Of a DNA stretch of 45,902 nt, positions 2,699 through 45,902 are shown piece after piece; position 1 is the stretch's first letter; the number at the start of each line of letters is the position of its first letter. The position numbers were made by a program, and so were the translations under genes. The notes below the pieces were generated by a model that saw only the letters and a list, made by a program, of their open reading frames with translations, ran no database searches and was not told the DNA's origin. The stretch is from an uncultured archaeon (GTDB lineage: Archaea > Aenigmatarchaeota > Aenigmatarchaeia > QMZS01): positions 1 through 45,902 of the forward strand of contig CAZLSF010000001.1 in NCBI GenBank assembly GCA_964562245.1, written 5' to 3'.

Positions 2699-4486
2699 AT
2701 GAATCTAAAAAAATTACAGGAATTTCTCGGTTCTGGCGGGGATTTGGTTGAATTACCAGACTATTTTTCAATTATTGTGAATGAAAGAAAGTTTGAGTTT
2801 AGAAGAACTCCTAAGAAAGCTCAAAAATTGCTAAAATACCCAAGAGAAAAGTTAATGGAAGAAATAAAATGGCCCCAGAATGTGGGAACCTATGATATAG
2901 GAGATGTTGCAAACCCTGTTATGTTAATCTGCCCGTCGCAAGACAGGGAATTGCAAGAACATGCAATTTATGCAGGAGTGTGCGCAACAGGACCCTGTTT
3001 AACCCCAAGGGGAGTCGAACTCCTGATAACAAATACAATCTCAAACCCAAATATAAGATTTTTGATTCTTGCTGGAAGAGATTCAGGGCATTTAACTGGG
3101 GATTTAATTGAAAATTTAATATTGAACGGAGTTGATGAAAATAGAAAGGTAATAGGCACAAAGTGTCCGTCGTTCCCTTACCTGCCAAACCTGAGTTTAG
3201 AAGCAATAAACAAATTCAGGGAACAATTAGAGGTTATAAATTTGATTGGTGTTTTTGATCCCACTTTGATAACTCTGATAATAAGACTTTGCTTGCAGGA
3301 ACCAAGTAATGCTTATGAATTAACCTATGAAGAAAAAGTTTCACCTCTATTTAAGCAAATCAAGAACCCAAAGAAAATTACTCATACTTTATTTGATAAA
3401 GGAACTGAAAACAAAGAACCTATGGTGTTGTCTTATTCTTTAGTGGACTTGCAGTCCCTGCCTTATGAAGCATTTTCAACAACAGGAACCACGGTTTACG
3501 CTTCCACAGTCGAGGAAGCGCATAGAATACTTGTTGACTTTTTAAAAAGAGCCGGGGTGTGGGTAAAACAAGAAAGCAATAGGATGGGTCTGGATGTAAT
3601 AGCAACAACAATTGTTGTGGAAAATCTTGAGCAGGGTCTTTATCCAAAAAATTACAAACCTGTGGAATGGGTTGATTCTGATGAAAAAATGAAACAATAT
3701 TTAAAGGCTTACGGTGTGTGGAATTATTTAGTTCCATGGAGCAATGTTGTGTTTGATGAAAGTCTTGATAAAACAGTTCCTTCTATTCCTGACATGAAAT
3801 ATCTTTCTTATTCTTATGGAACCAGGATTACCGCAAAGGGAATGGATTCATGCAAAAAAGAAGAGAAAGAAGGAATCATAAAATTAGTGAAATCTTTTCA
3901 GGAAAAGTATTATGAAAAAGTTCCTGACTTTAAATCAATTCTTAATTTTTACCATGATTTAAAAGAGATTCAAAAACAAAGTTTTAATCAATTGCTGGCA
4001 GTTACCAAAGCAGGCTCCATTATTATTAAAGATAATATTACCGGGACTTACAGGCCTTATTTACAATTGCACGTTGCGGATGATTTAAGACCTATTGACC
4101 CGAGAAAAATGCATAATCCTTGTTATTGTATGTTTGTTCCTTTTTTCAGGAAAACTTATTATAGGGAATATAATAAAGATGGAGTTACACGCAGATTTTT
4201 AGTTCCTTCTTTAAATGGTGAAAAAGAAAAAGATTTAAAGTATGATTGGTTGTTTATGCCTTCAGCTTATTTAAGGGCTCATGACTGGTTTGCTTTTCCA
4301 GCGAATGTCCACGGATCTTTAGCCATGGGGAACTTTATATTGCAGTACCTTGAAAAAGAAACAGGGAAAAAAATTCCATGGGGTTGTTATTCACATCATG
4401 CTTCATCATTGCATCTTGTTGATTATTCTCTTGATAAAGACCTGATTGAAAAACTTAACAGGACTTTGCCTTCAGATAAAAATTGA
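2699..4486 (+). CDS. fusion protein: N-terminal MtrA-like (tetrahydromethanopterin methyltransferase subunit A / DUF4346-like) domain plus C-terminal thymidylate-synthase-like domain
   Basis: The N-terminal part aligns by eye with MtrA: WPQNVGTYDIGD..PVMLI...ATGPCLTPRGVELLITNTISNPNIRFLILAGRDSGHLTGD...NGVD. The C-terminal part carries ThyA core motifs: YSYGTRI, NPCYCMFVPFFR (the catalytic-Cys position of PCHxxxQFYV), YLRAHDWFAFPANVHG (RSxDxxLGxPFN) and SSLHLVDY (THLYxNH). Confidence 0.65.
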   Translation: MNLKKLQEFLGSGGDLVELPDYFSIIVNERKFEFRRTPKKAQKLLKYPREKLMEEIKWPQNVGTYDIGDVANPVMLICPSQDRELQEHAIYAGVCATGPCLTPRGVELLITNTISNPNIRFLILAGRDSGHLTGDLIENLILNGVDENRKVIGTKCPSFPYLPNLSLEAINKFREQLEVINLIGVFDPTLITLIIRLCLQEPSNAYELTYEEKVSPLFKQIKNPKKITHTLFDKGTENKEPMVLSYSLVDLQSLPYEAFSTTGTTVYASTVEEAHRILVDFLKRAGVWVKQESNRMGLDVIATTIVVENLEQGLYPKNYKPVEWVDSDEKMKQYLKAYGVWNYLVPWSNVVFDESLDKTVPSIPDMKYLSYSYGTRITAKGMDSCKKEEKEGIIKLVKSFQEKYYEKVPDFKSILNFYHDLKEIQKQSFNQLLAVTKAGSIIIKDNITGTYRPYLQLHVADDLRPIDPRKMHNPCYCMFVPFFRKTYYREYNKDGVTRRFLVPSLNGEKEKDLKYDWLFMPSAYLRAHDWFAFPANVHGSLAMGNFILQYLEKETGKKIPWGCYSHHASSLHLVDYSLDKDLIEKLNRTLPSDKN

Positions 4487-8900: not shown

Positions 8901-9018
8901 CCTTTAAATAATGTACTGTTTTCAAAGAAAACAAGTGCGCTGCGAACTGAGTAGAGCGAACGGTGGGTATTTCATTTTTAATTAAAAATACTCTGATTTT
9001 TTCGAGTAATCTAAATAT

Positions 9019-10615: not shown

Positions 10616-11215
10616 TTAAATATTATAAGGTTCTACTGCAGTTTGGTCTATCAAAAATTGCCTGAAAAGGTTATTATTTTCTACAATCAAAACCTTGTTT
10701 GTTTTCTGATTCCTGTACCAAGCACTGGTTCTCTTATTTTCATTATAACCTAAATAATCAAAAAGAGCAAAGTCAGTGCTAATACCATAGGGTTCAAATC
10801 TATCTAATATATAGGAGTCTCCTTTTTTTATTAGAAAATAAAAGTTGGGAATATCTTTTTTTAGTTCTATCAATTCTTTTTTACAATTTTCGGGGAGTTC
10901 TGTATTATCAAACAAAAAAATATTTGCTGGAACATACATTGCATCTAATATTTTTGTTGATGAAGGTAAATAAAGGTTCTTTCCACCTTCTGAAATATAT
11001 TTGTCATAATTGTCTTTTAATGTTCCTCGTGTTTCCCCATTTAAAAGTTCTTCCAAAAAATCCTCTGTCAAAATACCAAACGTGCTCCTCCTGCTTTTTG
11101 GGACTAATTTATGCAATTCCTGAAGACCCTCATCACAATCATATTCCTTCCAAATTTTTCCAGATTCACAAATATCTCTCAACTGTCCCTGAAAACCTCC
11201 ATACCGTTTACTCAT
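10616..11215 (-). CDS. hypothetical protein (199 aa)
   Basis: ATG ORF with ordinary globular composition. No family recognised. Confidence 0.5.
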   Translation of the reverse strand: MSKRYGGFQGQLRDICESGKIWKEYDCDEGLQELHKLVPKSRRSTFGILTEDFLEELLNGETRGTLKDNYDKYISEGGKNLYLPSSTKILDAMYVPANIFLFDNTELPENCKKELIELKKDIPNFYFLIKKGDSYILDRFEPYGISTDFALFDYLGYNENKRTSAWYRNQKTNKVLIVENNNLFRQFLIDQTAVEPYNI

Positions 11216-11264
11216 AATAACAAGAACAATATATGTAAATTATTGCTTTCAAAAGTATTATATT

Positions 11265-11870
11265 ATGTACCTTAACATAAAAGAAGGTGAGTACCTCGTG
11301 AGGCTTGCAAGAAATTCAATTGCGCACTATCTTGAAAGTCTTCTTCCAATGACTCCCCCAAAACCAGACTTTCCAGAACTACTTGAAAAAAGAGGGGTCT
11401 TCTGCACACTACTTAAATATCCTAGCGGGGATTTAAGAGGATGCATTGGTCTAATTGAATCTGACAAAAGCCTGATTAATGGGGTTATAGAAACAAGTTG
11501 TTCCGCAACGCAAGACCCAAGATTTATGCCTCTGACTTCTGAAGAGCTGGATAAAATTATAATTGAAATAACAGTGTTAAGCAATATGCAGAAAATTCTT
11601 GTTTATCAACCGAGGGATTATCTAAATGAGATTGAAATTGGAAAAGACGGGTTGTTTATTAAATATAAATATAGTTCCGGGATTTTCCTTCCACAGGTTC
11701 CAGTTGAACAAAAATGGGACCTGAAAACTTATTTATGCGAACTATGCCTTAAAGCCGGTCTGGATGAAGATGCATGGATTACAAAACCTGTGGATTTGTA
11801 TAAATTCCAAGCACAGATATTTTCAGAGACCGAGCCGAGAGGAAATGTTTTTGAGAAGAAATTGAAGTAG
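11265..11870 (+). CDS. AMMECR1-domain protein
   Basis: Motifs GVFCTL...LRGCIG and DPRFMPL...L..I.IEITVLS are the AMMECR1 signature. Confidence 0.85.
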   Translation: MYLNIKEGEYLVRLARNSIAHYLESLLPMTPPKPDFPELLEKRGVFCTLLKYPSGDLRGCIGLIESDKSLINGVIETSCSATQDPRFMPLTSEELDKIIIEITVLSNMQKILVYQPRDYLNEIEIGKDGLFIKYKYSSGIFLPQVPVEQKWDLKTYLCELCLKAGLDEDAWITKPVDLYKFQAQIFSETEPRGNVFEKKLK

Positions 11871-11920
11871 ATATTTATATTTTTTTGAAAAACTGAGACA
11901 TAATAAAAAGAAAAATTTTA

Positions 11921-12081
11921 GTGACTTTCTATAAAAATCCTGATTTGGATGGCATAGTATGTGCTTCTTTATATGCAGAATATTTGCAAAAAATGGCATT
12001 GATGCAGTTTCCAGAAGTTTTGGAACACCTCATAGAAAAGCTCAATTTGTAGTTAATAAATTGTTGTATATTAATTTCTAA
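11921..12081 (+). pseudogene. frameshifted N-terminal fragment of a DHH-family phosphoesterase (paralog of the PPase at 14310..15242)
   Basis: Reads TFYKNPDLDGIVCASLYAEYLQK. After a 1-nt slip in the A6 run at 11988-11993 it continues NGIDAVSRSFGTPHRKAQFVVNKL. This parallels GHKNPDTDSIVSS...AVAKRAGELNNETKFVLDH in the intact gene. Only ~53 codons remain. Confidence 0.55.
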
Positions 12082-12088
12082 GAAATTT

Positions 12089-12961
12089 ATGTTGGCGGAA
12101 ATTTCAGGTGTAATTGAGGAAATTAAGAGTAAAGATTATAAGAGAATCCTAATTCAGGTTCCAGAAGGATTGAAAACCGAAGTTAAAGAAATTGCGGATA
12201 AAATTGAGAAAGAATGCGACGTGGATGTTTTTATAGCGGCTGAACCCTGTTACGGAGCATGTGATTTGCCTTTGGAAGAAACAAAATTCTTAGATTGCGA
12301 TGTAATTGTTCATTTTGGTCATTATGATTTTGGGGTTAAAACCAGAATTCCGGTAATTTATGTTCCTGTTGAGATTGATGCGGAACTTACTGAAGAATTG
12401 AAAAAAGAGATTGAAAAAATTAAAGAAAAAAAAATAAGCATTTATTCCTCAGAACCTTTCAGGAAACTTCTTGATTTATTTGGAGATTACTTGGAGGATA
12501 TTGGAAAAGAGGTGGTTAATAAAAAAATAATACTCGGGTGCTCAGAATATGAACCTGTGGGAGAATTAAATCTATTTATCGGATCAGGGAAATTTCACCC
12601 CCTTGCTCTAAAAGGAAAAACTTATTTTTTAAATCTTGAGAAAAACCGATTTGAAGATTTGAGTGGGGAAATTATGAAAGAAGAAATGAAAAAAGCCGCA
12701 AAAGTTTCAAAATTCAAAAATGCAAAAAAAGTGGGTATTCTTGTGTCAACTAAACCCGGGCAGTTTTACAAAAATTATAAGCAACTTGAAGATAAATTCA
12801 GGAAACAGGGGAAAAAAACAAGGATTTTAATATTTGATATGATTACAAATGAAAAACTGATGGGGCTTGATTATGATGTATATGTAAATACTGCGTGCCC
12901 ACGGATTCTTGATAATCCTTTTGACAAGCCTGTTGTTAATTTAAGGGATTTATCAATTTAA
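12089..12961 (+). CDS. dph2: diphthamide biosynthesis radical-SAM enzyme Dph2 (2-(3-amino-3-carboxypropyl)histidine synthase)
   Basis: Aligns along its whole length with archaeal Dph2: RILIQVPEGLK, PCYGACD, CDVIVHFGH, ILGCS, GSGKFHPL, NTACPRI. Confidence 0.9.
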   Translation: MLAEISGVIEEIKSKDYKRILIQVPEGLKTEVKEIADKIEKECDVDVFIAAEPCYGACDLPLEETKFLDCDVIVHFGHYDFGVKTRIPVIYVPVEIDAELTEELKKEIEKIKEKKISIYSSEPFRKLLDLFGDYLEDIGKEVVNKKIILGCSEYEPVGELNLFIGSGKFHPLALKGKTYFLNLEKNRFEDLSGEIMKEEMKKAAKVSKFKNAKKVGILVSTKPGQFYKNYKQLEDKFRKQGKKTRILIFDMITNEKLMGLDYDVYVNTACPRILDNPFDKPVVNLRDLSI

Positions 12962-13285
12962 TTTAGCTCTCTTCTTCTCAAGCAGGTCTTTTAATTCCAT
13001 TTTCCAGCCCTCTGCTCTGGGTTTGATGTACTCCAGTTTTTTCTCAAATTCAGAATCAAGGTCAAAATTATATACATTTGCAAGTTCCAAAACGCAAATT
13101 AAAACATCCGCAATTTCTGCCTTTAAGTCTTCTATATCCTCTGTTTCCTCGTAAATCTCCTTTTTCATTACCTCATTAGCAACTTCCCCAACTTCTTCTG
13201 TTAAAGCAACAAATGAAGCCAATCTTGGGTGTTCTATTTCTCCAAGCAATTCCTTAATCTTTTGTTGGGCTTGATGAATGTCCAT
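12953..13285 (-). CDS. MazG-like nucleotide pyrophosphohydrolase (small single-domain type)
   Basis: 110 aa. The helical EExxE/D pattern (LTEEVGEVANEV...; LKAEIADVLICVLELAN) is typical of MazG/all-alpha NTP-PPases. Confidence 0.8.
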   Translation of the reverse strand: MDIHQAQQKIKELLGEIEHPRLASFVALTEEVGEVANEVMKKEIYEETEDIEDLKAEIADVLICVLELANVYNFDLDSEFEKKLEYIKPRAEGWKMELKDLLEKKRAKLN

Positions 13286-13592
13286 AATTTATTGGATTAA
13301 AATATATTTCAGTTAAAAAATCTATTTATAATAGATATTTAGTTGATAATTAGTTTTGATTATTCCCATTGTCTAATAACAACAAATATTTTTTTGGAAT
13401 AATTATAATTATTTAGAGTTAATAATTTTCTTATGTTTTTTATTTATTATTTTATCTTTGCCTTTCTGAATTCTTATTTTAATTCTCACCCTGGTTAACA
13501 ATATTCTTCGCTAATTACTTTAATCCCGTTTATTCTTAAAAACACGAAAATAATCTTATATTTAATAATAATCTGTGGTTTTATTACACTTT

Positions 13593-16301: not shown

Positions 16302-17138
16302 ATGGTTATGAACAACAAACTTATTTTTGTCACACTGGCGTTTCTTCTGTTCAGTCTTGCCTTTCTCGGGTATAAACAAGTGACAACAGGTAGTTTTATT
16401 GATAAAAGCATTGATTTGAAAGGAGGGAACCTTCTTATTATTTCTTTCTCTGATGCAAATTATAATGAAATATCTAATTTAAGGGGTAAACTTCAAACCA
16501 AATATCATGTTAACACATATACAACAACAAGTGCAATTGAGACCCAATTATCAGTTGAATGTCCTGAAGATAATGTCAATGAACTAATAAAAGATATTAA
16601 CACCACTCTTGAAATCAGAAATTACGAACTCAGTAAAATAGATCCTAAATTAAGCGCAGGGATTTTTAATGAAATAATCTATTCTGTATTTATTGCTTTC
16701 ATTGCAATAGCAATCATAATATTTCTTCTTTTCAGAATATTTATTCCATCATTTGCAGTTGTCCTGTGTGCATTCTCAGACATTATAATCACACTGTTTT
16801 TTATGAATATTTTTTCAATACCTTTATCAATAGTTACTTTTACCGCTCTCTTAATGTCTCTTGGTTATTCAGTTGACACAGATATTTTACTTACTACAAG
16901 AACCCTTAAATTAAGAAAGAATTTTGATGACCAATATAAAAAAGCCCTTAAAACAGGACTTACAATGAGCGCAACAAGCCTAATTGGACTCATCTCTATT
17001 TTGCTTATAACCGGATTTTCATCTGTATTTGGGCAACTTTCAGCAGTCTTAATAATATCTCTTATTGTTGATCTTCCAAATACCTGGATTCAGAATGCTT
17101 CAATTTTAAGGTGGTATAGCGAAAAACCTAAACACTGA
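16302..17138 (+). CDS. secF: protein-export membrane protein SecF
   Basis: N-terminal TM helix, then IDLKGG and a periplasmic-type domain, then a TM bundle with LGYSVDTDILLTTR. Confidence 0.85.
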   Translation: MVMNNKLIFVTLAFLLFSLAFLGYKQVTTGSFIDKSIDLKGGNLLIISFSDANYNEISNLRGKLQTKYHVNTYTTTSAIETQLSVECPEDNVNELIKDINTTLEIRNYELSKIDPKLSAGIFNEIIYSVFIAFIAIAIIIFLLFRIFIPSFAVVLCAFSDIIITLFFMNIFSIPLSIVTFTALLMSLGYSVDTDILLTTRTLKLRKNFDDQYKKALKTGLTMSATSLIGLISILLITGFSSVFGQLSAVLIISLIVDLPNTWIQNASILRWYSEKPKH

Positions 17139-17506
17139 AAGTTCTCAGATAATCTTTAAAATATAATTAAGATTTAGGAAATCTATACGAAAAATATTGC
17201 ATATTCTCTCAGGAAATGTGCCGGAAATAGTTCACGCAGTTCAAAGAAACCAAATTGAAAATACTTGTTTATAATATTGAAATAACTGTTTGCAGTTTTT
17301 TATTGTTTTTGGTATTAATAACTTGTTAAAGTAAGTGGTTTTAGAGGATTTTTATAGAGCCAAATTTTATTTTATAAAATCTGGAATTTTCTGGAATTTT
17401 ATTTTAAGATAATACCCTAAAGATAGATTACTTTCAATTTGCAGTTGAATTATATGAAAGTTTTCTTGAAAAAGCTCAAATCAATTAATATTTAAAATAG
17501 TTACAA

Positions 17507-21045: not shown

Positions 21046-24000
21046 ATGAGGAGGCATTATTTTAGTCAAAAACAGGCTTTATTAATATGTTTTACATTAA
21101 GTTTTTTTCTTCTTCCAGCAATATCATTAGCAACATGCTGTACTGAGTTACTATCTTCTTGTCCATATGGAAATGTGGATGGCAATAGTTGTAATAATGT
21201 TAGTATCGGATCTTATTGTGAAGGTGATGGTGAATGCGGAACAGATAATAATGCAAATAATTGTAATGTATGGGATTGGTACAAGCGGGTATGTTGTGAT
21301 AATGGTGTTAGTTGTTCTGTAGATGGAGATTGTTGTTCAGGCAATTGCGTGGATGGTTATTGCTGTGATTCTGCCTGCAATGGTGCTTGTGAAGCCTGCA
21401 ATGTAGCGGGACATGAAGGAACTTGCACAGATGATCATTCTTTATGTAGTGGAACAATTTCTTCCTGCTATTGTAGTGGTGGAGTTTGCCAACCTTGTAC
21501 TGACCCAGGAGGTTGCAGTTATGCAACTTGTATAGGTCATACTTGCGGAACTGCAGATTATGGGACATCTCATGAATGCAATTCAGCTTGGAAATGTTCT
21601 ACATCTACAGGGGATGGTAACTACGGAGTTGGAAGCGGAAATTACAAATGCCAAGGATATTGCGATGGGTCTGGGAATTGTGATTACGCTGGAAACTGCT
21701 ATAATTGCAATGACGATAATTATTATTATTGCGAAACAGGAAATAATAAATATTACCAGGATTATGATTGCTCTGGTGGAACTTGTGTAAAAGACACTCC
21801 TTCTTTTCGAAAAGATTGTGATGATTATGACGATGATAATTGTTGGTTAGTTTGTGATACTGGAACTGGAGATATAGATAGGTGGTGTGATGATTGGTAT
21901 TGCAATAGTGGAACATGTAAAGATTCTGGAAATAACTGGCTCAGAGATAATCCTTATAGTGATTGTTCAGATACAGCAAGTGATAATGATGGAGGAGATA
22001 AACCAAAGACATCAGGAACTTGCACAGATTATGAACTCTGTACCTCTGGAGATACTTCCTGTCCCTCCACAGATTATCCAGATAATTGTGCCTCTACAAC
22101 ACATTTAGAAGAATATTATCCTTACTCCAATGATTGCACTTCAAAAGATTATTATTGCAGTGATTTTGAAGTTGCAGCAACAGACTCCTATGGAGATGAT
22201 CCTACCTACACAGAAACTTGCTATGGTGGAATAGGGGCTTCTTGTTCTTCTAACCAATTTGTAACCTCTTCTCAAAGTGATTTTACAGATCACTGTACCG
22301 GAACTTGCGGAACAGGGATAGATTCTTGTTATTTTATAGAATACTATCCTGCTGATTCAGGAGATGCTTGCTCAGGGAATGATTACTGCAAACCAAAAAA
22401 TTATGATGCAGATCATGAAAGCAACACTTGCAATGCATGTGGATTAAATTGGAATCTTGATTGTTCCTTTGGGGATTGCTCTCCTTCTGAATCTTCAAGC
22501 AAAGAGGTCGGTACAACTTACACTTATAATTACTGTTGTGGGGATGATGCAAGTGAATATGCAATAACTTGTTCCTGTAACTTAAATTCCTGTTCTTCTG
22601 ACAGCACAGATGCCTGCTGCGCAAATTCAGATGATTGTGTCTGGGCAGGTGGGTGTTATTTAAATGGAAATACTACCGACATAGATTCTGATGGAATAGA
22701 TGAATATTGTAAAGGTAATGAAAATAAATGGTATGCCTATCCAAATATTACTTCAATTTCTATAGATAAATCCCCAATAGACAGAGATGATGAAGTAGAT
22801 AAATTTACACCTGACACTGAAATAAAAATTACAGCAGAAATTTATGATCAAGATAATAACGACAGGGATAAAGTTTATATAACTATTTACGAACCAGATG
22901 GAGTAACAATTGCAAAAGACCAAAGTGGAACATCTATAAATTCAAAACTTATGATCTGTTCTGATACAAATTCAAATCATTGGAGTTGCTATTATAATTA
23001 CAACCCAGAAGATGGTTCTCCTATTAGAGATTATGATGTAAAAATAAAAGCTGTTGATAACGAGGGTTTGGAAGATACAAAAACAGAAAGTAATTTATTT
23101 AAAGTTGAAGATATTTATTTAACTAATATGAATCACTATGGAACAACAAAAGATTTGCACATAACAGGAACAGCAAAATATACAACTTATGATACTACAG
23201 TCTCCGGGGCAAATGTAAAATGCTATGCTGAAGACAAAATTTGTTCAACAACCACAGATGGTGGTGGAAACTTTGATTGTAATATAGGGGAACTAAACAA
23301 AAATTTTGCACAGTATAATACAATAAAAACAAACACTTTTATCTGCGAGGTTATGGATATTTATAATATTGCGGGTAGTAGGACTTATAATATAACTATC
23401 GGATTGCGGGCTACAACTCACACCTGGAATGACACAACCCTTTATCATGATGAAACAGTAAGTTTTAATGTTACTTTTAAAAATGTTGGGGATTTAACTT
23501 TTGCAATGGATGACTTATATTGGGAAATCAGTTCTGAAAATGGAACCAACCCGGAAATAAACGAAGATTGTCATAACACAGGCTGGGTAGATGCATGTGG
23601 ATATTTAGGGAAATATGAAGGAGATCCGCATAATTCTTGTGGATGTTATATTCAGTTTGACCAAAACTTGGTTCCTGGAAACACAGTTACTTATTCTGGT
23701 TCCTGGAAAGCAAAATATCATGAATTTGGAGATTATAATTTTAGTGTTTGGGTAGAGTTTCCAGATAATGAAACTGGTTTTACAAATATCGTTGCCGGAC
23801 AAAAAATAAAGACAATTAAAATATTAGATAAATCGCCAGTAAATCTAACCTTTATGTTTGCTTTGCCTTCCCCTGTTGATAGAGATAAAGAAACATCCAA
23901 GACAAATGATAATATTACAATAAGAGTCAATGCAACTGATTATGTTGATGGAGTTCTTGGCGATAATGATGAATTAGAGCAATATTCTACAATTTGGGTG

Positions 24001-25821
24001 AAAAGTGATCAAAACAATAATTGGATGATCTGCGAAAATGTAACAATGAACCAGATTCCTTATCATAATGCATATTATTACGGGAACTGCACTTGGAACC
24101 CACCTAATGATATGTCTGATGTTGATTTAGGTAATTTTAGTGTTAAGTTCAAAGTTCTTGGGTATGGAAGTTATCATGATATTGTAGGGGAAGGTTACAA
24201 TATTTCTGATTACTCTGAAAATACAGACAAATTTGTTGTTGAAGATATTGATATATCAAATATTGCTTGGTCCTTTGGAAACACAACAGATTTAATTTTT
24301 ATAGGAAATGCAACCTACCTTTCAAATAATCTAAGAATTAACAATATAACAAATCAAACTTGCAGCCAGCCCATAATTTTAGATATTCCTGATGGAAATG
24401 AAAATACAAGAGAAAATATAAATCCGCCAGATTCAAGACTTTGTGGGATTAATTCTTTTGCGCAAGATATAACTTGCACTGTAATAAATGGAAATTTTAG
24501 TTGTTATGTCAGAAATATTAAGCTGAATGATACAACAGTTACTTTTTCCTATATTTTAACTGATGAAAAAAATATTTCAGGAAACGAAGACCTAACGATC
24601 AATTTAAACGGAACAATAGATGATTTTATCAATATAAGTGATCCGGATGGATTTGTAAATATTTATCAACCAATTAATTATACAATAAATTTCTCAAACA
24701 CAGGAAACATTGGATGGTTTGGAGAGATTTCTAATCAAACAAGAATAAAAATCTATTCTCCTGCTGGAGAAAATCCTGTAATTCCCTCGCAAGAGCATAT
24801 TTCTTTAGATTGTGATAACAATAGTTCCTGGGTGAATTTGATGAATGGAACAACCAGTAATTTTTCGCATTTCTTGGGTCATTCTTATTATGTTCTGGGA
24901 AAATATAATTATATAACAAATTTAAGTTATTTCTGGTCTGATTCTTTACATAGTATAAATTTCTCTATTACAACAGGAGGAAAAACAAACTACACGGTTG
25001 CAGCAATAGATATTACAGATTATAATTTACCCAACAAAGTTGTTAGAGGAAACCAGATTATAGGAAAAGCAAAGGGATATTTTGTTGGTTCAATGGATAT
25101 AGGTTATTGGGAAGAAATTCAAGGAGATGCATTTAAAGTTACAAACAACACAACAAATGCAATATATTGGGTTGAGAAATGGAATAAAACTTCAAAAATA
25201 GGAACAGAAATTCCAGAAACAAACATGACCTGGAATCCTGGTTTTTGGGAAGGTAAAATAAATACCTTTGATTTAAGTTGTGATGATGAAACAACAGTTC
25301 ATAGAGTTTATTTCCTGATTAACTGGACAGATTTTAATATTTATACCCCTTATGTAAAAGGAGAATTTAAATCAGAATTCTGGCCTTATTTTTATCAAAA
25401 TTTAAGTGTGATCTGTACCTCAAGAGAATTATTTGAAGTTAATCCAGAAATTACGAATGTTGCTCTAGGAACAGAAAATAGAGATATTTATAATATTTTT
25501 ATTGAAAATCCAAGTGACAGTCCAGTTGATATAAACCTGACAATAAATTGTGATGATTACCCTGATGCTGTAAATTGGGTAAATGAAAATCATTGGACTA
25601 TTCATATTCCTGCAGAGAGTTCTACTTCAAAAATAGTTACCTTAGACGAGGCTCCAAGAGTTGGTAACTATGAATTTTCTGTATCGGTAAGAGGAGACCT
25701 AAGATATGACAAAAAAGTCTGGTTGAATATTTTCTCAGAAGCGTTGGGTTCTGATAGTTTAGTTTATCTTCTCTTATTATTTTTCATGACTTCTATTTTA
25801 TTGATTAAAAGAAAATTATGA
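21046..25821 (+). CDS. giant (1591 aa) secreted Cys-rich, heavily sequon-decorated surface protein with C-terminal anchor/sorting-like tail
   Basis: Signal peptide MRRHYFSQKQALLICFTLSFFLLPAISLA. There are 71 Cys between residues ~31 and 560 by hand count. One DIDSDGIDEY Ca-binding-type motif is present. Two large beta-rich super-repeats follow. I count more than 30 N-x-S/T sequons. The C-terminus reads ...SEALGSDSLVYLLLLFFMTSILLIKRKL. Confidence 0.9.
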   Translation: MRRHYFSQKQALLICFTLSFFLLPAISLATCCTELLSSCPYGNVDGNSCNNVSIGSYCEGDGECGTDNNANNCNVWDWYKRVCCDNGVSCSVDGDCCSGNCVDGYCCDSACNGACEACNVAGHEGTCTDDHSLCSGTISSCYCSGGVCQPCTDPGGCSYATCIGHTCGTADYGTSHECNSAWKCSTSTGDGNYGVGSGNYKCQGYCDGSGNCDYAGNCYNCNDDNYYYCETGNNKYYQDYDCSGGTCVKDTPSFRKDCDDYDDDNCWLVCDTGTGDIDRWCDDWYCNSGTCKDSGNNWLRDNPYSDCSDTASDNDGGDKPKTSGTCTDYELCTSGDTSCPSTDYPDNCASTTHLEEYYPYSNDCTSKDYYCSDFEVAATDSYGDDPTYTETCYGGIGASCSSNQFVTSSQSDFTDHCTGTCGTGIDSCYFIEYYPADSGDACSGNDYCKPKNYDADHESNTCNACGLNWNLDCSFGDCSPSESSSKEVGTTYTYNYCCGDDASEYAITCSCNLNSCSSDSTDACCANSDDCVWAGGCYLNGNTTDIDSDGIDEYCKGNENKWYAYPNITSISIDKSPIDRDDEVDKFTPDTEIKITAEIYDQDNNDRDKVYITIYEPDGVTIAKDQSGTSINSKLMICSDTNSNHWSCYYNYNPEDGSPIRDYDVKIKAVDNEGLEDTKTESNLFKVEDIYLTNMNHYGTTKDLHITGTAKYTTYDTTVSGANVKCYAEDKICSTTTDGGGNFDCNIGELNKNFAQYNTIKTNTFICEVMDIYNIAGSRTYNITIGLRATTHTWNDTTLYHDETVSFNVTFKNVGDLTFAMDDLYWEISSENGTNPEINEDCHNTGWVDACGYLGKYEGDPHNSCGCYIQFDQNLVPGNTVTYSGSWKAKYHEFGDYNFSVWVEFPDNETGFTNIVAGQKIKTIKILDKSPVNLTFMFALPSPVDRDKETSKTNDNITIRVNATDYVDGVLGDNDELEQYSTIWVKSDQNNNWMICENVTMNQIPYHNAYYYGNCTWNPPNDMSDVDLGNFSVKFKVLGYGSYHDIVGEGYNISDYSENTDKFVVEDIDISNIAWSFGNTTDLIFIGNATYLSNNLRINNITNQTCSQPIILDIPDGNENTRENINPPDSRLCGINSFAQDITCTVINGNFSCYVRNIKLNDTTVTFSYILTDEKNISGNEDLTINLNGTIDDFINISDPDGFVNIYQPINYTINFSNTGNIGWFGEISNQTRIKIYSPAGENPVIPSQEHISLDCDNNSSWVNLMNGTTSNFSHFLGHSYYVLGKYNYITNLSYFWSDSLHSINFSITTGGKTNYTVAAIDITDYNLPNKVVRGNQIIGKAKGYFVGSMDIGYWEEIQGDAFKVTNNTTNAIYWVEKWNKTSKIGTEIPETNMTWNPGFWEGKINTFDLSCDDETTVHRVYFLINWTDFNIYTPYVKGEFKSEFWPYFYQNLSVICTSRELFEVNPEITNVALGTENRDIYNIFIENPSDSPVDINLTINCDDYPDAVNWVNENHWTIHIPAESSTSKIVTLDEAPRVGNYEFSVSVRGDLRYDKKVWLNIFSEALGSDSLVYLLLLFFMTSILLIKRKL

Positions 25822-29014: not shown

Positions 29015-29052
29015 TTATTGAGGGTAAAATAAAAAAAATAATATAATTTTAT

Positions 29053-29350
29053 GCCTCAGTAGCTCAGTTAAACTGCAAACAGCATTCATCAAAAATGATG
29101 CCCTTTTTCGCGTTGCGAAAAATAAGGTTTTATCATTTGGTCTGCCTTTGCTTAAATACCTTAAAAAAACTCGGCAAGCTTTCAAAAAGTTTCAGTTTAG
29201 AGAAATCTGGTAGAGTGCGTGCTTGGTAAGCACGAGGTCCCGGGTTCAACGCAACTCTTTTCACAGGCGAAGCAAATGCTTGTCTTTTAGACTGTACCCT
29301 ATTTGCTTTGCAAAATGGAAAGGTATAAAGTGAAAACCCCGGCTGAGGCT
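29053..29350 (+). tRNA. tRNA-Thr (anticodon GGU) interrupted by two introns (D-loop ~29069-29206; T-loop ~29250-29335)
   Basis: The exons assemble into a 74-nt cloverleaf. Acceptor stem GCCUCAG/CUGAGGC. D stem GCUC/GAGU. Anticodon stem CGUGC/GCACG with loop UUGGUAA. Variable region AGGUC. T stem CCGGG/CCCGG with loop UUCAAAC. Discriminator U. The ends of the D-loop intron pair (UUAAACUG...CAGUUUAG). Confidence 0.75.
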
Positions 29351-29358
29351 TATTTTAA

Positions 29359-42447: not shown

Positions 42448-42668
42448 GCCACGGTAGCTCAAGCTTACCCTTTTCTTTTCCGAAAGGAAAAGACTAAAGT
42501 TCACCCAAAAGAAAAGGAGATTATTCACACTCCAAAATGTATTCGGAATAAAAGGGAAGGAGCAATCCGGTAGAGCACCGGTCTTGTAAACCGAAGGTTG
42601 AGGGTTCAACGCAACCTTTTTCTACGCAATTATTTAAAAAGGTATAAGTGGAAATCCCTCCCGTGGCT
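42448..42668 (+). tRNA. tRNA-Thr (anticodon UGU) interrupted by two introns (D-loop ~42463-42565; T-loop ~42610-42653)
   Basis: The exons assemble into 74 nt. Acceptor stem GCCACGG/CCGUGGC. D stem GCUC/GAGC. Anticodon stem CCGGU/ACCGA (27:43 is a C-A mismatch) with loop CUUGUAA. T stem GAGGG/CCCUC with loop UUCAAAU. Discriminator U. The D-intron ends pair (CUU(A)CCCUUUU...AAAAGGGAAG). The T-intron has an 8-bp internal stem ACCUUUUU/AAAAAGGU. Confidence 0.75.
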
Positions 42669-42727: not shown

Positions 42728-43885
42728 ATGGACATATACGAAAGATTGAGGAAAAGAAAAATATCCGAGAGCAATAAAAGAGTTATTAAGCAATTTATTA
42801 AGAATAGAGAAAGTGAAGGAATACAGGAAAGGAGATTATCAAAGTATGAATATATGTTGTCTGTTTTTGCGGGAGTTGTTAAAAAGGATATTTCTAAAGT
42901 TGGTGAAAAAGATCTAAGAAAATTCACAACATGGTTATTGGAACAGAAATTATCAGAGAACACAAAAATAACTTTTAAGATAGTTATAAAAACTTTCTTT
43001 AGAAACTTTGTATTTGGTGGTGAACTGCCAAAAAAGTTTAGAGAAATTCTGAAAGCAAAAAGGATTACAAACAATCTAACTCCTCAGGATTTATGGTCTA
43101 TGGAAGATATACAAAAATTACTTAATCAAACTCAAAATATAAGAAGAAAGGCTATGATAATGGTCTTATTTGAGGGGGGATTGAGAGCTGGTGAATTGCT
43201 ATCTCTTCGTGTAGGTGATATTGAGTTTACAAATTGGGGTTGCAGGATTTTTGTTCCGGAATCAAAGACAAAAACAAGAAGTCTGCCTTTATTTAATTCT
43301 GCTCCTTTGTTAAGTCAATATTTAAGAACTCATCCTAAAAGAGAAGATAAAACTATTTCCCTTTGGCTTAATGATAAAGGTAAACCTATGAAATATCCTG
43401 CTTTAAGAAAAATGCTAAATGATTTAAAAGATAAGGCAGGTTTCCAAAATAAGAGAATATTTGCTCATTTACTCAGGCACTCAAAACTTACAGTTTTATC
43501 TCAGCAACTAAAATCAGCAGAGTTAAAAGAATTTGCAGGATGGACTTCCATAAAAATGGTGGATACTTATTCTCACTTAAATTGTGAAAATGTAGAAGAG
43601 AAACTATTAGAACAACAGGGAATTAAAATTAAGAGTAAAAAAGAAATATATAATCCAATAAAGTGTCCGAGATGCAATCAACAAAATGAATATAATGCTA
43701 AATACTGTAATTCCTGTGGGTTAATTCTTGGAAAAACAGCAATAGAGGAAGTGAAGAAAATAGAAACTTTAGATAACCTAAGTACTGAAGCCTTAAAGAA
43801 AGAAAATGTTCGGGAAGCCTTTAAAGAAGCAATAAAGGAATTGATTAAAGAGAATCCTGATATTTTGAAAGGATTAAATTTATAA
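42728..43885 (+). CDS. tyrosine recombinase/integrase with C-terminal zinc ribbon
   Basis: Catalytic set: GGLRAGE (Arg), SKTKT (Lys hairpin), HLLRHS (HxxR), GW, and MVDTYSHL (Tyr). The C-terminal extension carries CPRCNQQNEYNAKYCNSCG. The gene starts 60 nt after the tRNA-Thr(UGU). Confidence 0.9.
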   Translation: MDIYERLRKRKISESNKRVIKQFIKNRESEGIQERRLSKYEYMLSVFAGVVKKDISKVGEKDLRKFTTWLLEQKLSENTKITFKIVIKTFFRNFVFGGELPKKFREILKAKRITNNLTPQDLWSMEDIQKLLNQTQNIRRKAMIMVLFEGGLRAGELLSLRVGDIEFTNWGCRIFVPESKTKTRSLPLFNSAPLLSQYLRTHPKREDKTISLWLNDKGKPMKYPALRKMLNDLKDKAGFQNKRIFAHLLRHSKLTVLSQQLKSAELKEFAGWTSIKMVDTYSHLNCENVEEKLLEQQGIKIKSKKEIYNPIKCPRCNQQNEYNAKYCNSCGLILGKTAIEEVKKIETLDNLSTEALKKENVREAFKEAIKELIKENPDILKGLNL

Positions 43886-43896
43886 ATATTGTGTTA

Positions 43897-43980
43897 CAAA
43901 GAACTACTTTGAACTACAAATGTATAGCATTGTATTACTTTTGGATACAAAAGTATTTAAAATAAATACTTTGTAATACA
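43897..43980. promoter_or_regulatory. candidate operator/promoter region upstream of the RHH gene
   Basis: Direct repeat gaactac at 43901-43907 and 43911-43917. Inverted repeat tgtattac (43931-43938) / gtaataca (43973-43980). An inner imperfect palindrome aaagtattt-aaaat-aaatacttt overlaps an AT-rich TATA-like stretch. Confidence 0.3.
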
Positions 43981-43985
43981 TATTT

Positions 43986-44273
43986 ATGGCAAATAAAAAG
44001 AGTATATCTCTAAGGTTGGATGAAGAAGAAATTAAAAAAATAAGAGATATTGCAGAAAAAGAAGGAGTAAAAAGAAGTTTTATAATTAAAAAAGCAATAA
44101 CTCAGTTTATTGAGAACTATGGAAAAGAGTCTCAAGATGAAAAAAAGATATATGAAAAAATCAGTGAAATTGAAAGAAGGTATGGATCAGTTTTAACAAG
44201 AACAAATATCCTCAAAACACAAGTTGATAATATTATCAAAAGAATGGATAAAATAGAGAAAAATGGAAAATAA
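43986..44273 (+). CDS. ribbon-helix-helix (CopG/Arc/MetJ-like) DNA-binding protein
   Basis: KKSISLRLDEEEIKKIRDIAEKEGVKRSFIIKKAITQFIENY is a beta strand followed by two helices. The C-terminal half looks like a coiled coil. Confidence 0.8.
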   Translation: MANKKSISLRLDEEEIKKIRDIAEKEGVKRSFIIKKAITQFIENYGKESQDEKKIYEKISEIERRYGSVLTRTNILKTQVDNIIKRMDKIEKNGK

Positions 44274-45902
44274 AATAGACAGGTTATTAAAAGAAAGTTG
44301 TCCCTGGCAGGACAAATCTAACAAGGAATGGTATGTTAAAGATGGAGATCTTAGAGAATTGATAGAAGCAGAAAAACAGGGTTTATTTCATCCTCCTAAG
44401 ATAAAATATGTTTTAGAAAAGAAGTTCTTTGACGAATTGTTTAAGGATTCAAATAAGTATGGAATACTAATCCTGAGAGGACCTAGAAGAATTGGCAAAT
44501 CATCTACTTTAAAATATTTAGTAAAAGAATATATAGATAAGAAAGAAGATCCAAATAGGTTCGTTTATCTTTCTCTTGATAAAGAAGATCTTTTTATAGG
44601 AAGTAAAAAAAGAATATTTTTAAGAGAATTAATAAAAAATGTAATTAACAAATACAAAAAAGAAAATAAACCATTAGTTCTTATTCTTGATGAAGTTACC
44701 TTCTATGAAGGATGGTGTAGGGCATTCAAAAATTTAATAGATGAAGGCATTATAGGTCCTGGTATTGGGATGATTGCAACAGGTAGTTATTCTTTAGATT
44801 TAAGCAGTGCAAAAAGAGAATTATCAGGAAGATTTGGTCCTTTAGGTGAAGCATTCGGTGGTGATATATTCATGTATCCAAGAAAATTTATAGAACTATC
44901 TGAATCTTTACTTGGTGGAGATTTCAAAAATTTTATTGGTAAAAACATTGGTGACTTTGGAAAAAGATGCGGTATGATAGAATATTTAGCTAATTATCAA
45001 ACAAAAGAAAATAATATAAAATTCGGTTATGAACAACTTTTAAATCAAATTTTATATCAGTACTATGATGACTTACACGATCTATTTAAAGAAATTTATT
45101 TATACAGTGGAGGTTATCCGAGATCGTTTTATAGAGCTATATTGAGTAAAAGGTCTGGTGAGGTTGCAGTTTCTGATTCTAGGTATATAGAAGATATATA
45201 TAATCTGCTTGTTACAGATTCAAAAAAATTTAGACTTTCTGAAGAGACTCTCAAAAGTATATTAAAAAAGATAGAATTTCCTTCAATGGAAATTACCTAT
45301 ACCTCTCTAATTAAACTCAAAAAAGAAGATGTAGAAAAATATATATCTTATCTAAAAGCTTCTGGTCTGTTTGCTTTTATACCACTTATTAGCTCTTCAA
45401 CACAAATAGATGTTGAAAACTTGCTGGTAACACCAAACAGAGAAAAATTAAAGTTAATTATAACTGATCCTGCTGCTTTCATAGCAATTTATATGGGTTC
45501 AAGAGGAATAACAGGAGATATAATTAAACATACTAAAGAAATATTTACCCAAAAGGAAAAAATAAAAGAACTATTATTTGAATCCATCGTAGTATCTCAT
45601 TTATTGAGAAGCCCTATTTTTAGGAAGTCTTCTCTTGTAGAAAATGTTTGTTTTGTCAAAAAAGAAAATGAAGAGCTAGTAGATTCTCTAGCATGGTATG
45701 TAAACTGGAAAAACGAATTAGTTCTTGTTGCTGTAGAAGCAAAAACAGGAAATATAGACCTAAAAGAAATAAAAAGGAAATCAAATATATTAAAAGATGA
45801 ATTTAATATAAAACGCTTAATTGTTGTTTCTAACAACAAAGAACTAAAAATTGAAGAAGATTATGTTGTAATTCCTATTGAAATATTCCTTCTCTTTTTA
45901 TA
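44263..45902 (+). CDS. AAA-type ATPase of the COG1373 (AAA_14 plus DUF4143-like) family, 3'-truncated by the window edge
   Basis: This ORF is not in the supplied track because it has no stop inside the window. The ATG at 44263 overlaps the RHH stop by 11 nt. Walker A is ILRGPRRIGKSST. Walker B is LVLILDEVTF. The C-terminal part (WYVNWKNELVLVAVEAKTG) resembles the nuclease-fold DUF4143 end. Confidence 0.8.
   Translation, partial: MENKIDRLLKESCPWQDKSNKEWYVKDGDLRELIEAEKQGLFHPPKIKYVLEKKFFDELFKDSNKYGILILRGPRRIGKSSTLKYLVKEYIDKKEDPNRFVYLSLDKEDLFIGSKKRIFLRELIKNVINKYKKENKPLVLILDEVTFYEGWCRAFKNLIDEGIIGPGIGMIATGSYSLDLSSAKRELSGRFGPLGEAFGGDIFMYPRKFIELSESLLGGDFKNFIGKNIGDFGKRCGMIEYLANYQTKENNIKFGYEQLLNQILYQYYDDLHDLFKEIYLYSGGYPRSFYRAILSKRSGEVAVSDSRYIEDIYNLLVTDSKKFRLSEETLKSILKKIEFPSMEITYTSLIKLKKEDVEKYISYLKASGLFAFIPLISSSTQIDVENLLVTPNREKLKLIITDPAAFIAIYMGSRGITGDIIKHTKEIFTQKEKIKELLFESIVVSHLLRSPIFRKSSLVENVCFVKKENEELVDSLAWYVNWKNELVLVAVEAKTGNIDLKEIKRKSNILKDEFNIKRLIVVSNNKELKIEEDYVVIPIEIFLLFL

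Follow-up and report, generated by a model that had tools for sequence, protein, structure and literature searches.

Two candidate protein-spliced introns at non-canonical sites in the tRNA-Thr genes of an Aenigmatarchaeota archaeon

Introduction

Can a transfer RNA (tRNA) gene that is broken by insertions in both its D-loop and its T-loop still give rise to a functional tRNA? This question is raised by a 298-nt locus at positions 29053-29350 (plus strand) of a 45,902-nt stretch of DNA from an uncultured archaeon, referred to below, at its full length, as the window. The locus consists of three exon blocks and two insertions. From comparison with related sequences, we conclude that it very probably represents a functional tRNA-Thr(GGU) gene of Aenigmatarchaeota carrying two endonuclease-type introns, located at tRNA sites 15/16 and 59/60. 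An earlier note, made from the letters of this DNA alone, had proposed a two-intron tRNA gene at this position; its claims are followed below where the results bear on them.

Organization of the tRNA-Thr(GGU) gene

In window order, the gene is composed of GCCTCAGTAGCTCAG, a 138-nt insertion, TCTGGTAGAGTGCGTGCTTGGTAAGCACGAGGTCCCGGGTTCAAC, an 86-nt insertion and CCCCGGCTGAGGCT. The outermost elements are the acceptor strands GCCTCAG (29053-29059) and CTGAGGC (29343-29349), followed by the discriminator U at 29350; the anticodon GGT is positioned at 29225-29227, and CCA is not encoded. Removal of the D-loop and T-loop insertions yields a 74-nt cloverleaf that ARAGORN identifies as tRNA-Thr(ggt). 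This spliced form features a 7-bp acceptor stem, a D-stem GCUC/GAGU, an anticodon stem CGUGC/GCACG enclosing the loop UUGGUAA, a T-stem CCGGG/CCCGG and a discriminator U. The perfect acceptor stem spanning 298 bp, the two insertion lengths and the 74-nt cloverleaf described in the earlier note are all borne out. Its exon split of 16, 43 and 15 nt holds for the number of blocks and not for their lengths, as the cleavage rule applied below gives 15, 45 and 14. The introns interrupt 15/16 and 59/60 and leave the canonical site 37/38 untouched, the latter again as the note had stated, and the locus thereby qualifies as a multi-intron tRNA gene. The components are as follows.

29022-29052, plus strand: A/T-rich block GGGTAAAATAAAAAAAATAATATAATTTTAT, putative archaeal promoter (BRE/TATA) of tRNA-Thr(GGU)
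29053-29067, plus strand: exon 1; acceptor 5' strand, U8 A9, D-stem 5' strand GCUC, A14 G15
29068-29205, plus strand: intron 1, 138 nt, D-loop site 15/16, relaxed bulge-helix-bulge (BHB), HBh' type
29206-29250, plus strand: exon 2; rest of the D-loop, D-stem 3' strand, anticodon arm, variable loop, T-stem 5' strand, U54-C59
29251-29336, plus strand: intron 2, 86 nt, T-loop site 59/60, relaxed BHB, hBH/BHL type
29337-29350, plus strand: exon 3; C60, T-stem 3' strand, acceptor 3' strand, discriminator U73
29351-29358, plus strand: T-rich tract TATTTTAA, putative transcription stop

In its unspliced form the gene escapes detection. ARAGORN, one of the intron-aware tools suggested in the earlier note, calls no tRNA anywhere in the window, with or without the intron options, and at a relaxed score returns spurious calls elsewhere only. 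With Rfam, no match reaches the gathering threshold, none appears when all of the window is searched up to E=0.5, and a local search up to E=10 returns noise alone.

Conservation among relatives

A scan for the anticodon-arm pattern, with one genome per species, returned at least 120 loci. About 110 of the 120 listed are uninterrupted tRNA-Thr(GGU) genes by ARAGORN (Thermoplasmata, Archaeoglobi, Micrarchaeota, Woesearchaeota and others). The five Aenigmatarchaeota loci among the matches listed (L013, L018, L035, L040 and L116) are all interrupted at the two sites seen in the window. No uninterrupted tRNA-Thr(GGU) from an Aenigmatarchaeota genome appears among these matches, so that the intact copy elsewhere, which the earlier note had named as grounds for regarding the gene as a decayed copy, was not encountered in this phylum. 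A metagenome scan with the exon-2 pattern retrieved two contigs only, L121 and L122, which at 99.2% and 99.9% identity to the window represent strain-level relatives. Near-identical contigs are present in the JGI samples Ga0190303 and Ga0190315. Following synteny outward from PurC, a neighbouring gene, we also reached L123, whose tRNA sequence equals that of L116, and L125. Altogether, seven of seven distinct versions from relatives (L121, L040, L035, L116/L123, L125, L018 and L013) carry insertions at exactly both sites, the L013 version ending inside intron 2 at a contig end; this agreement goes well beyond chance. When spliced, each complete orthologue is likewise identified by ARAGORN as tRNA-Thr(GGU).

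The exons and the introns of these orthologues differ markedly in conservation. Exons are 93-100% identical among the relatives, compared with coding DNA that is about 82-86% identical between the same genomes, which indicates that the exons are strongly constrained and the intron interiors are not. Exon 1 is the same in all eight distinct gene versions. The exons differ from those of L040, L035, L116 and L125 by one compensatory T-stem pair only, in which G52-C62 is replaced by A52-U62. Across the orthologues, two T-stem pairs are changed on both sides, namely 52:62 (G-C to A-U) and 50:64 (C-G to U-A). In an alignment of seven distinct spliced tRNA-Thr sequences, 96.6% of the cloverleaf pair cells are paired; sliding the partners by 1-3 columns lowers this share to 37-46%. 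Changes on both sides affect eight cloverleaf pairs, including pairs of the acceptor stem (exon 1 with exon 3) and of the T-stem (exon 2 with exon 3). The surroundings of the exons are conserved as well: the A/T-rich block GGGTAAAATAAAAAAAATAATATAATTTTAT is nearly identical 5' of the gene in L040, L035, L116 and L125, while sequence further upstream differs, and a T-rich tract follows the discriminator in all orthologues.

Apart from the near-identical L121, intron 1 is 24-89% identical to that of the window or not alignable, and intron 2 is 31-49% identical. Lengths range from 39 to 140 nt for intron 1 and from 28 to at least 119 nt for intron 2. Intron 1 is 89% identical in L040 and 41 nt shorter in L035, accompanied by a 43-nt deletion, and L116 and L125 possess a non-alignable 39-nt intron that retains the helix and bulge geometry described in the next section. 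The deleted 43-nt segment (about 29128-29170 in the window, TTTTATCA...CCTTAAAAAAA) is present in L040 and cleanly absent in L035. Introns 1 and 2 of L013 appear, by eye, to share an internal module (GCCTTTARGAAAGGC ... CCAAA..TTGG.TAAAAA). Both the segment and the module may be small elements nested inside introns.

Two further loci were noted in this comparison. In L091 (Micrarchaeota, about 4037-4077), a tRNA-Thr(GGU) gene has a normal D-loop and a single T-loop insertion of about 38 nt; it was left out of the comparison, as the insertion did not fit the same helix and bulge register. In L125, three genes (323, 89 and 291 aa) occupy positions 11036-13344 between PurC and tRNA-Thr(GGU), and a tRNA 3'-end remnant, TGAGGCTGTTTATATTTAAA, adjoins PurC. 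This stretch resembles an insertion at the 3' end of the tRNA with target duplication. CDC48 homologues of 64-71% identity led to more distant Aenigmatarchaeota, where neither a conserved gene order nor a tRNA-Thr was found.

Splice motifs at the two junctions

Archaeal splice motifs follow a rule of a 4-bp helix flanked by 3-nt bulges, and at the canonical site this helix includes the first two anticodon bases, so that two bulge nucleotides stay with the exon (PMC4090602). We placed each cut after the second bulge nucleotide on either side of the 4-bp helix, following the rule that the same source states for the canonical site.

At intron 1, the helix H is formed by the D-stem strand GCUC (29062-29065) and intronic GAGA (29200-29203). 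On the 5' strand, the bulge A G^U (29066-29068; the caret marks the cut) separates H from the helix h', in which UAAACUG (29069-29075) pairs with CAGUUUA (29193-29199) and which reaches 11 bp in all, a single C being bulged out. Past H' on the 3' strand come A A^U and then only a weak outer helix. Intron 1 is an HBh' half-motif with its junction at 15/16. The rule places its cuts at 29067/29068 and 29205/29206, giving the predicted splice junction GCUCAG^UCUGGUA; the resulting D-loop product, AGUCUGGUA, is the same for the 15/16 cut and for the 16/17 split of the earlier note.

At intron 2, the T-stem serves as the outer helix h. H is formed by UUCA (29245-29248), directly after the T-stem, and UGAA (29331-29334), and the 3'-strand bulge A A^C (29335-29337) adjoins the T-stem. 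In this predicted arrangement, intron 2 is an hBH (BHL) half-motif. The cleavage rule gives cuts at 29250/29251 and 29336/29337, corresponding to site 59/60 and a T-loop UUCAACC. In the minimum free energy (MFE) fold of the 298-nt precursor, which has a z-score of -3.0, the intron-2 motif is recovered together with the acceptor stem, the anticodon arm and the T-stem.

BHB motifs are present at both junctions in relaxed form, as HBh' in intron 1 (h' of at least 7 bp, bulge AG^N) and as hBH in intron 2. The fold check proposed in the earlier note, in which the lack of any BHB-like structure would have counted against splicing, comes out in favour of the introns. The same signatures recur throughout the relatives. 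All eight distinct intron-1 junctions combine GCUC paired with GAG(A/C), a 3-nt bulge and a helix h', and H' is a perfect GAGC (4 bp) in L125, L018 and L013 and in the tRNA-Thr(UGU) gene described below. Two non-alignable intron-1 families, beginning UAAACUG... and CCUACC..., both keep the layout of H, bulge and h'. All nine distinct intron-2 junctions combine UUCA paired with UG(A/G)A, a bulge AA^Y and the T-stem; H' varies only between UGAA and UGGA, with pairing kept through U-G.

A second split gene for tRNA-Thr(UGU)

A second gene, absent from the earlier note, is located at 42448-42668 (plus strand) and is split at the same sites, 15/16 and 59/60. It was reached through a G+C-rich intergenic island at 42554-42593 and a blastn match to an intron of L013. 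No other intergenic island of this kind occurs beside that of the GGU gene. A G+C-rich (63%) island at 8937-8967, in a spacer of 118 nt that separates two genes on the minus strand, is not tRNA-like and has no Rfam match.

42448-42462, plus strand: exon 1, 15 nt
42463-42565, plus strand: intron 1, 103 nt, D-loop site 15/16, HBh' type
42566-42610, plus strand: exon 2, 45 nt, anticodon UGU
42611-42654, plus strand: intron 2, 44 nt, T-loop site 59/60, hBH/BHL type
42655-42668, plus strand: exon 3, 14 nt

The spliced sequence is identified as tRNA-Thr(tgt) by ARAGORN. In intron 1, H consists of GCUC paired with GAGC (4 bp), followed by the bulge AA^G and by h', CUU(A)CCCUUUU paired with AAAAGGGAAG; the MFE fold recovers this motif. 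In intron 2, H is UUCA paired with UGGA, and the bulge is AA^U.

Orthologues of this gene (L126, L127 and L128) were reached through the neighbouring CDC48 gene. L126 carries both introns. The genes of L127 (same contig as L125) and L128 (same assembly as L116) are devoid of the D-loop intron and equal the predicted spliced sequence exactly or within one base. For the window gene the predicted splice product is GCUCAA+UCCGGUAGAGC, and the intron-less L128 gene reads exactly GCTCAATCCGGTAGAGC. We regard this match to the predicted junction as the nearest substitute for an RNA experiment, one that would lend indirect support to splicing. A scan of viral contigs with the UGU exon 2 gave no hits. 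Searches of the window for other tRNAs, by an intact T-arm or a T-loop intron, yielded none beyond the two tRNA-Thr genes; one further candidate, at 17046-17411, was rejected as an A/T-only false positive.

Intron sharing between the two tRNA-Thr genes

Introns of the two isoacceptors are related to each other across genomes. Intron 1 of the window's UGU gene has a full-length homologue in intron 1 of the L013 GGU gene. For intron 2 of the window's GGU gene, homology to intron 2 of the L128 UGU gene extends over about 65 nt, and the GGU gene of L116, from the same genome as L128, has a short intron 2 without that inner module. Within the window, the ends of UGU intron 2 resemble the ends of GGU intron 2. 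Given these homologues across isoacceptors, and a D-loop intron that is present or absent among genomes whose CDC48 proteins are 92-93% identical to that of the window, the comparison points to introns having been recently exchanged, gained or lost. Gene conversion between paralogues is as likely a route of sharing as transposition.

Tentatively, and with doubts that exceed our confidence, we raise the further idea that introns or their nested modules are mobile at present in Aenigmatarchaeota. They would move or be copied between the two tRNA-Thr paralogues, with gain or loss of the D-loop intron within a genus-level clade, and introns above 100 nt would carry a cargo RNA, for instance a stable circular RNA. 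If true, this intron mobility would be the DPANN counterpart of intron transposition in Thermoproteales.

Proposed processing pathway

We postulate that a precursor of about 300 nt would be transcribed from the conserved A/T-rich promoter. Each junction would adopt a relaxed bulge-helix-bulge fold, in which bases of the 5' exon and the last bases of the intron form a 4-bp helix beside a 3-nt bulge. In intron 1, GCUC would pair with GAG(A), and the well-formed bulge would hold the 5' splice site (HBh'). In intron 2, UUCA would pair with UGAA, and the well-formed bulge, next to the T-stem, would hold the 3' splice site (hBH/BHL). The two relaxed motifs use different parts of the tRNA and could therefore coexist. 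The archaeal splicing endonuclease (EndA) would cut two nucleotides past the helix on each strand, an RtcB-type ligase would join the three exons, and the ends would be trimmed and CCA added. As both motifs are half-motifs, the enzyme would have to have broad specificity. The pathway predicts that Aenigmatarchaeota possess such a broad-specificity splicing endonuclease.

Evidence against splicing and alternative explanations

Several observations weigh against a spliced, functional gene. Excision of the introns and ligation of the exons are steps that we infer. The strict hBHBh' motif is found at neither junction, only the relaxed half-motifs. H of the window's intron 1 contains three Watson-Crick pairs and a G-A mismatch, and its outer helix is weak. 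The 5' cut site of intron 2 is placed by the predicted fold in a 7x7 internal loop, not in a 3-nt bulge. The weak, A/U-rich H helices are recovered by MFE folds in only some orthologues, and because this recovery is patchy, the motif evidence is comparative rather than thermodynamic. Figures from 2014 give archaeal tRNA introns a range of 11-129 nt and a median of 12-25 nt; GGU intron 1, at 138 nt, exceeds this range, as do introns of 140 and 137 nt. An EndA domain is encoded by none of the 41 open reading frames (ORFs) of the window, and a tblastn search for EndA over 991 kb of loci, with an approximate M. jannaschii query, gave nothing credible. By sequence alone, runs of A also allow a 58/59 junction for intron 2, with a T-loop UUCAAAC.

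This last point concerns the position of one cut, and the gene and its mechanism would be the same. The T-loop intron could lie at 58/59 (or at 56/57 or 57/58), an arrangement that we consider possible but clearly the less probable one. UUCAAAY is like the commonest archaeal T-loops, which counts for 58/59. The earlier note had called the T-loop junction ambiguous between nucleotides 56 and 59; the A runs do allow this, but the 4-bp helix with two exon-side bulge nucleotides, a rule stated for the canonical site (PMC4090602), places the junction at 59/60, just outside that interval. The predicted splice junction reads GGGUUCAAC^CCCCGG at 59/60 and UUCAAACCCCGG at 56-59. Site 59/60 with an hBH motif is moreover the arrangement cleaved experimentally in ARMAN-2, and we favour 59/60 over 56-59 with reasonable though far from full confidence.

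Two other explanations would deny that the locus is a gene spliced by an endonuclease. It could be a decayed pseudogene, a tRNA-Thr(GGU) gene inactivated by two insertions, with an intact copy elsewhere. Standard detectors see no tRNA at 29053-29350, and the search for an intact copy covered the window and the matches listed by the genome scan (at least 120 loci), which leaves some room for decay. Yet purifying selection on the exons is strong at this level of coding divergence between genomes, and covariation is seen in the acceptor and T-stem pairs that bridge the insertions. The promoter-like block and the downstream T-tract are conserved, the Aenigmatarchaeota anticodon-arm matches listed are all interrupted, and the helix-bulge geometry is retained by every one of the non-homologous intron families found at these two sites. 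Taken with these data, we judge a pseudogene highly improbable. Slightly less probable still are insertions that an endonuclease does not splice, that is, self-splicing group I/II introns or small mobile insertions that would leave separately processed pieces. The insertions are long for archaeal tRNA introns, and their conserved hairpin modules, indels and apparent movement between genes would suit such elements. They contain no ORFs, however, and the helix-bulge signature of EndA substrates always occurs at both ends, while the three exons are collinear on one strand behind one promoter-like block. Group I/II introns in particular were rejected: lengths of 28-140 nt (86 and 138 nt in the GGU gene) are far too small compared with hundreds of nucleotides, and Rfam searches return no match up to E=0.5 for the window as a whole and, in the local search up to E=10, no family of introns. 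A functional tRNA-Thr(GGU) gene with two endonuclease-type introns accordingly remains our preferred reading.

Comparison with known tRNA introns

The closest experimental parallel to the T-loop intron is the tRNA-Cys(GCA) precursor of ARMAN-2 (Ca. Micrarchaeum), whose 13-nt hBH/BHL intron at 59/60 is cleaved in vitro by an epsilon2 EndA (Fujishima et al. 2011, PMC3239211). Both cases share a DPANN host, the site 59/60, the T-stem as outer helix, a 3-nt bulge holding the 3' splice site and a 4-bp helix in which T-loop bases take part. They differ in the length of the intron (86 nt in the window against 13 nt), in the second intron in the D-loop and in the phylum, Aenigmatarchaeota. Site 59/60 is among the listed tRNA intron sites (PMC4090602).

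Multi-intron tRNA genes with up to three introns per gene, as well as intron transposition, are described for Thermoproteales (Sugahara 2008; Fujishima 2010), as summarized in the reviews PMC4033280 and PMC4090602. As in these genes, a single tRNA is interrupted by at least two BHB-type introns away from the canonical site, related introns occur in different tRNA genes, and close relatives differ by intron gain or loss. In contrast to Thermoproteales, the host belongs to DPANN and not to TACK, two tRNA-Thr isoacceptors only are documented here, the sharing is between paralogues at the same two sites, and the introns are much longer than the usual median of 12-25 nt.

Within DPANN, several lineages have non-canonical and multiple introns together with EndAs that carry an L3 loop, and standard predictors miss part of the DPANN tRNA set (Kaneta et al. 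2018, PMC5829648). The DPANN genomes newly added in that study are from Pace-, Woese- and Nanohaloarchaeota and Mancarchaeum, none from Aenigmatarchaeota. Among EndAs, the (alpha-beta)2 and epsilon2 types are known to have broad specificity, which has also been suggested for DPANN alpha4 enzymes with an L3 loop (PMC5829648, PMC3239211). The statement of the earlier note that multi-intron tRNAs are known mainly from Thermoproteales and a few DPANN lineages agrees with PMC4033280, PMC4090602 and PMC5829648.

Another long archaeal intron is that of tRNA-Trp in Haloferax and other Euryarchaeota, which contains a box C/D small RNA, has a median of 65 nt and occupies the canonical site 37/38. Length and a conserved internal structure are common to both, whereas the window introns occupy non-canonical sites and have neither a D box nor an Rfam match. 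An intron-borne box C/D small RNA was rejected for the window, as none of its four introns contains a CUGA D box and one imperfect C-like box (AUGAUGC) was the only trace.

Our literature search found no paper on these tRNA-Thr genes or on such genes in Aenigmatarchaeota. The two-intron tRNA gene is an already known type; the present case is modestly unusual in its intron lengths, in the two fixed sites common to two isoacceptors and in the interchange of intron families.

As in the DPANN genomes of PMC5829648, standard detection fails more widely: whether or not its canonical-intron option is used, ARAGORN detects no tRNA in the window, nor in L013, L018, L035, L040, L116, L123 and L125-L131, a small sample of about 130 kb of overlapping loci. 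This hints that many Aenigmatarchaeota tRNA genes may be disrupted. Split genes that are missed make DPANN genomes look short of tRNAs and distort estimates of completeness and codon usage. The orthologue set also constitutes a compact natural experiment on the origin, spread and loss of protein-spliced introns, with the same two sites throughout, interchangeable families, a variably present D-loop intron and lengths of 28-140 nt, and shows what a relaxed splice motif must keep to stay functional.

Host and genomic context

The window has a G+C content of about 31% and encodes archaeal hallmark proteins, namely eIF-1A, the ribosomal proteins L19e, S8e and S19, TFIIB, CDC48, diphthamide synthase and an archaeal pilin. 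The closest named homologues of CDC48 (92-93% identity) and PurC (80-85%) belong to Candidatus Aenigmatarchaeota, and by these neighbours the host is, as judged from its proteins, a tiny, uncultured DPANN archaeon of the Aenigmatarchaeota.

Downstream of the UGU gene, a gene of the phage-integrase family (42728-43885) starts 60 nt past the tRNA 3' end, and 44274-45902 contains no ORF of at least 100 aa (the longest has 80 aa). In L126-L128, the sequence just downstream of tRNA-Thr(UGU) differs from that of the window. The region 42728-45902 may be an integrated element for which the tRNA served as attachment site; a search of the window for a duplicate of the tRNA-Thr(UGU) 3' end that would mark such a site found none.

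Elsewhere in the window, a 595-aa protein (2699-4486, plus strand) contains an MtrA domain (tetrahydromethanopterin S-methyltransferase subunit A), which is odd for a DPANN archaeon. A 1591-aa ORF (21046-25821, plus strand) without a Pfam match is located just downstream of two T2SSF pilus-assembly genes. Several close homologues of CDC48 (L128 4001-7117; P0125, P0139, P0171 and others) are, at 1038-1320 aa, much longer than the 810 aa of the window's protein. PF14890 and/or PF14528, which we take to be intein domains, occur in several of the longest, so that inteins may interrupt CDC48 in some relatives.

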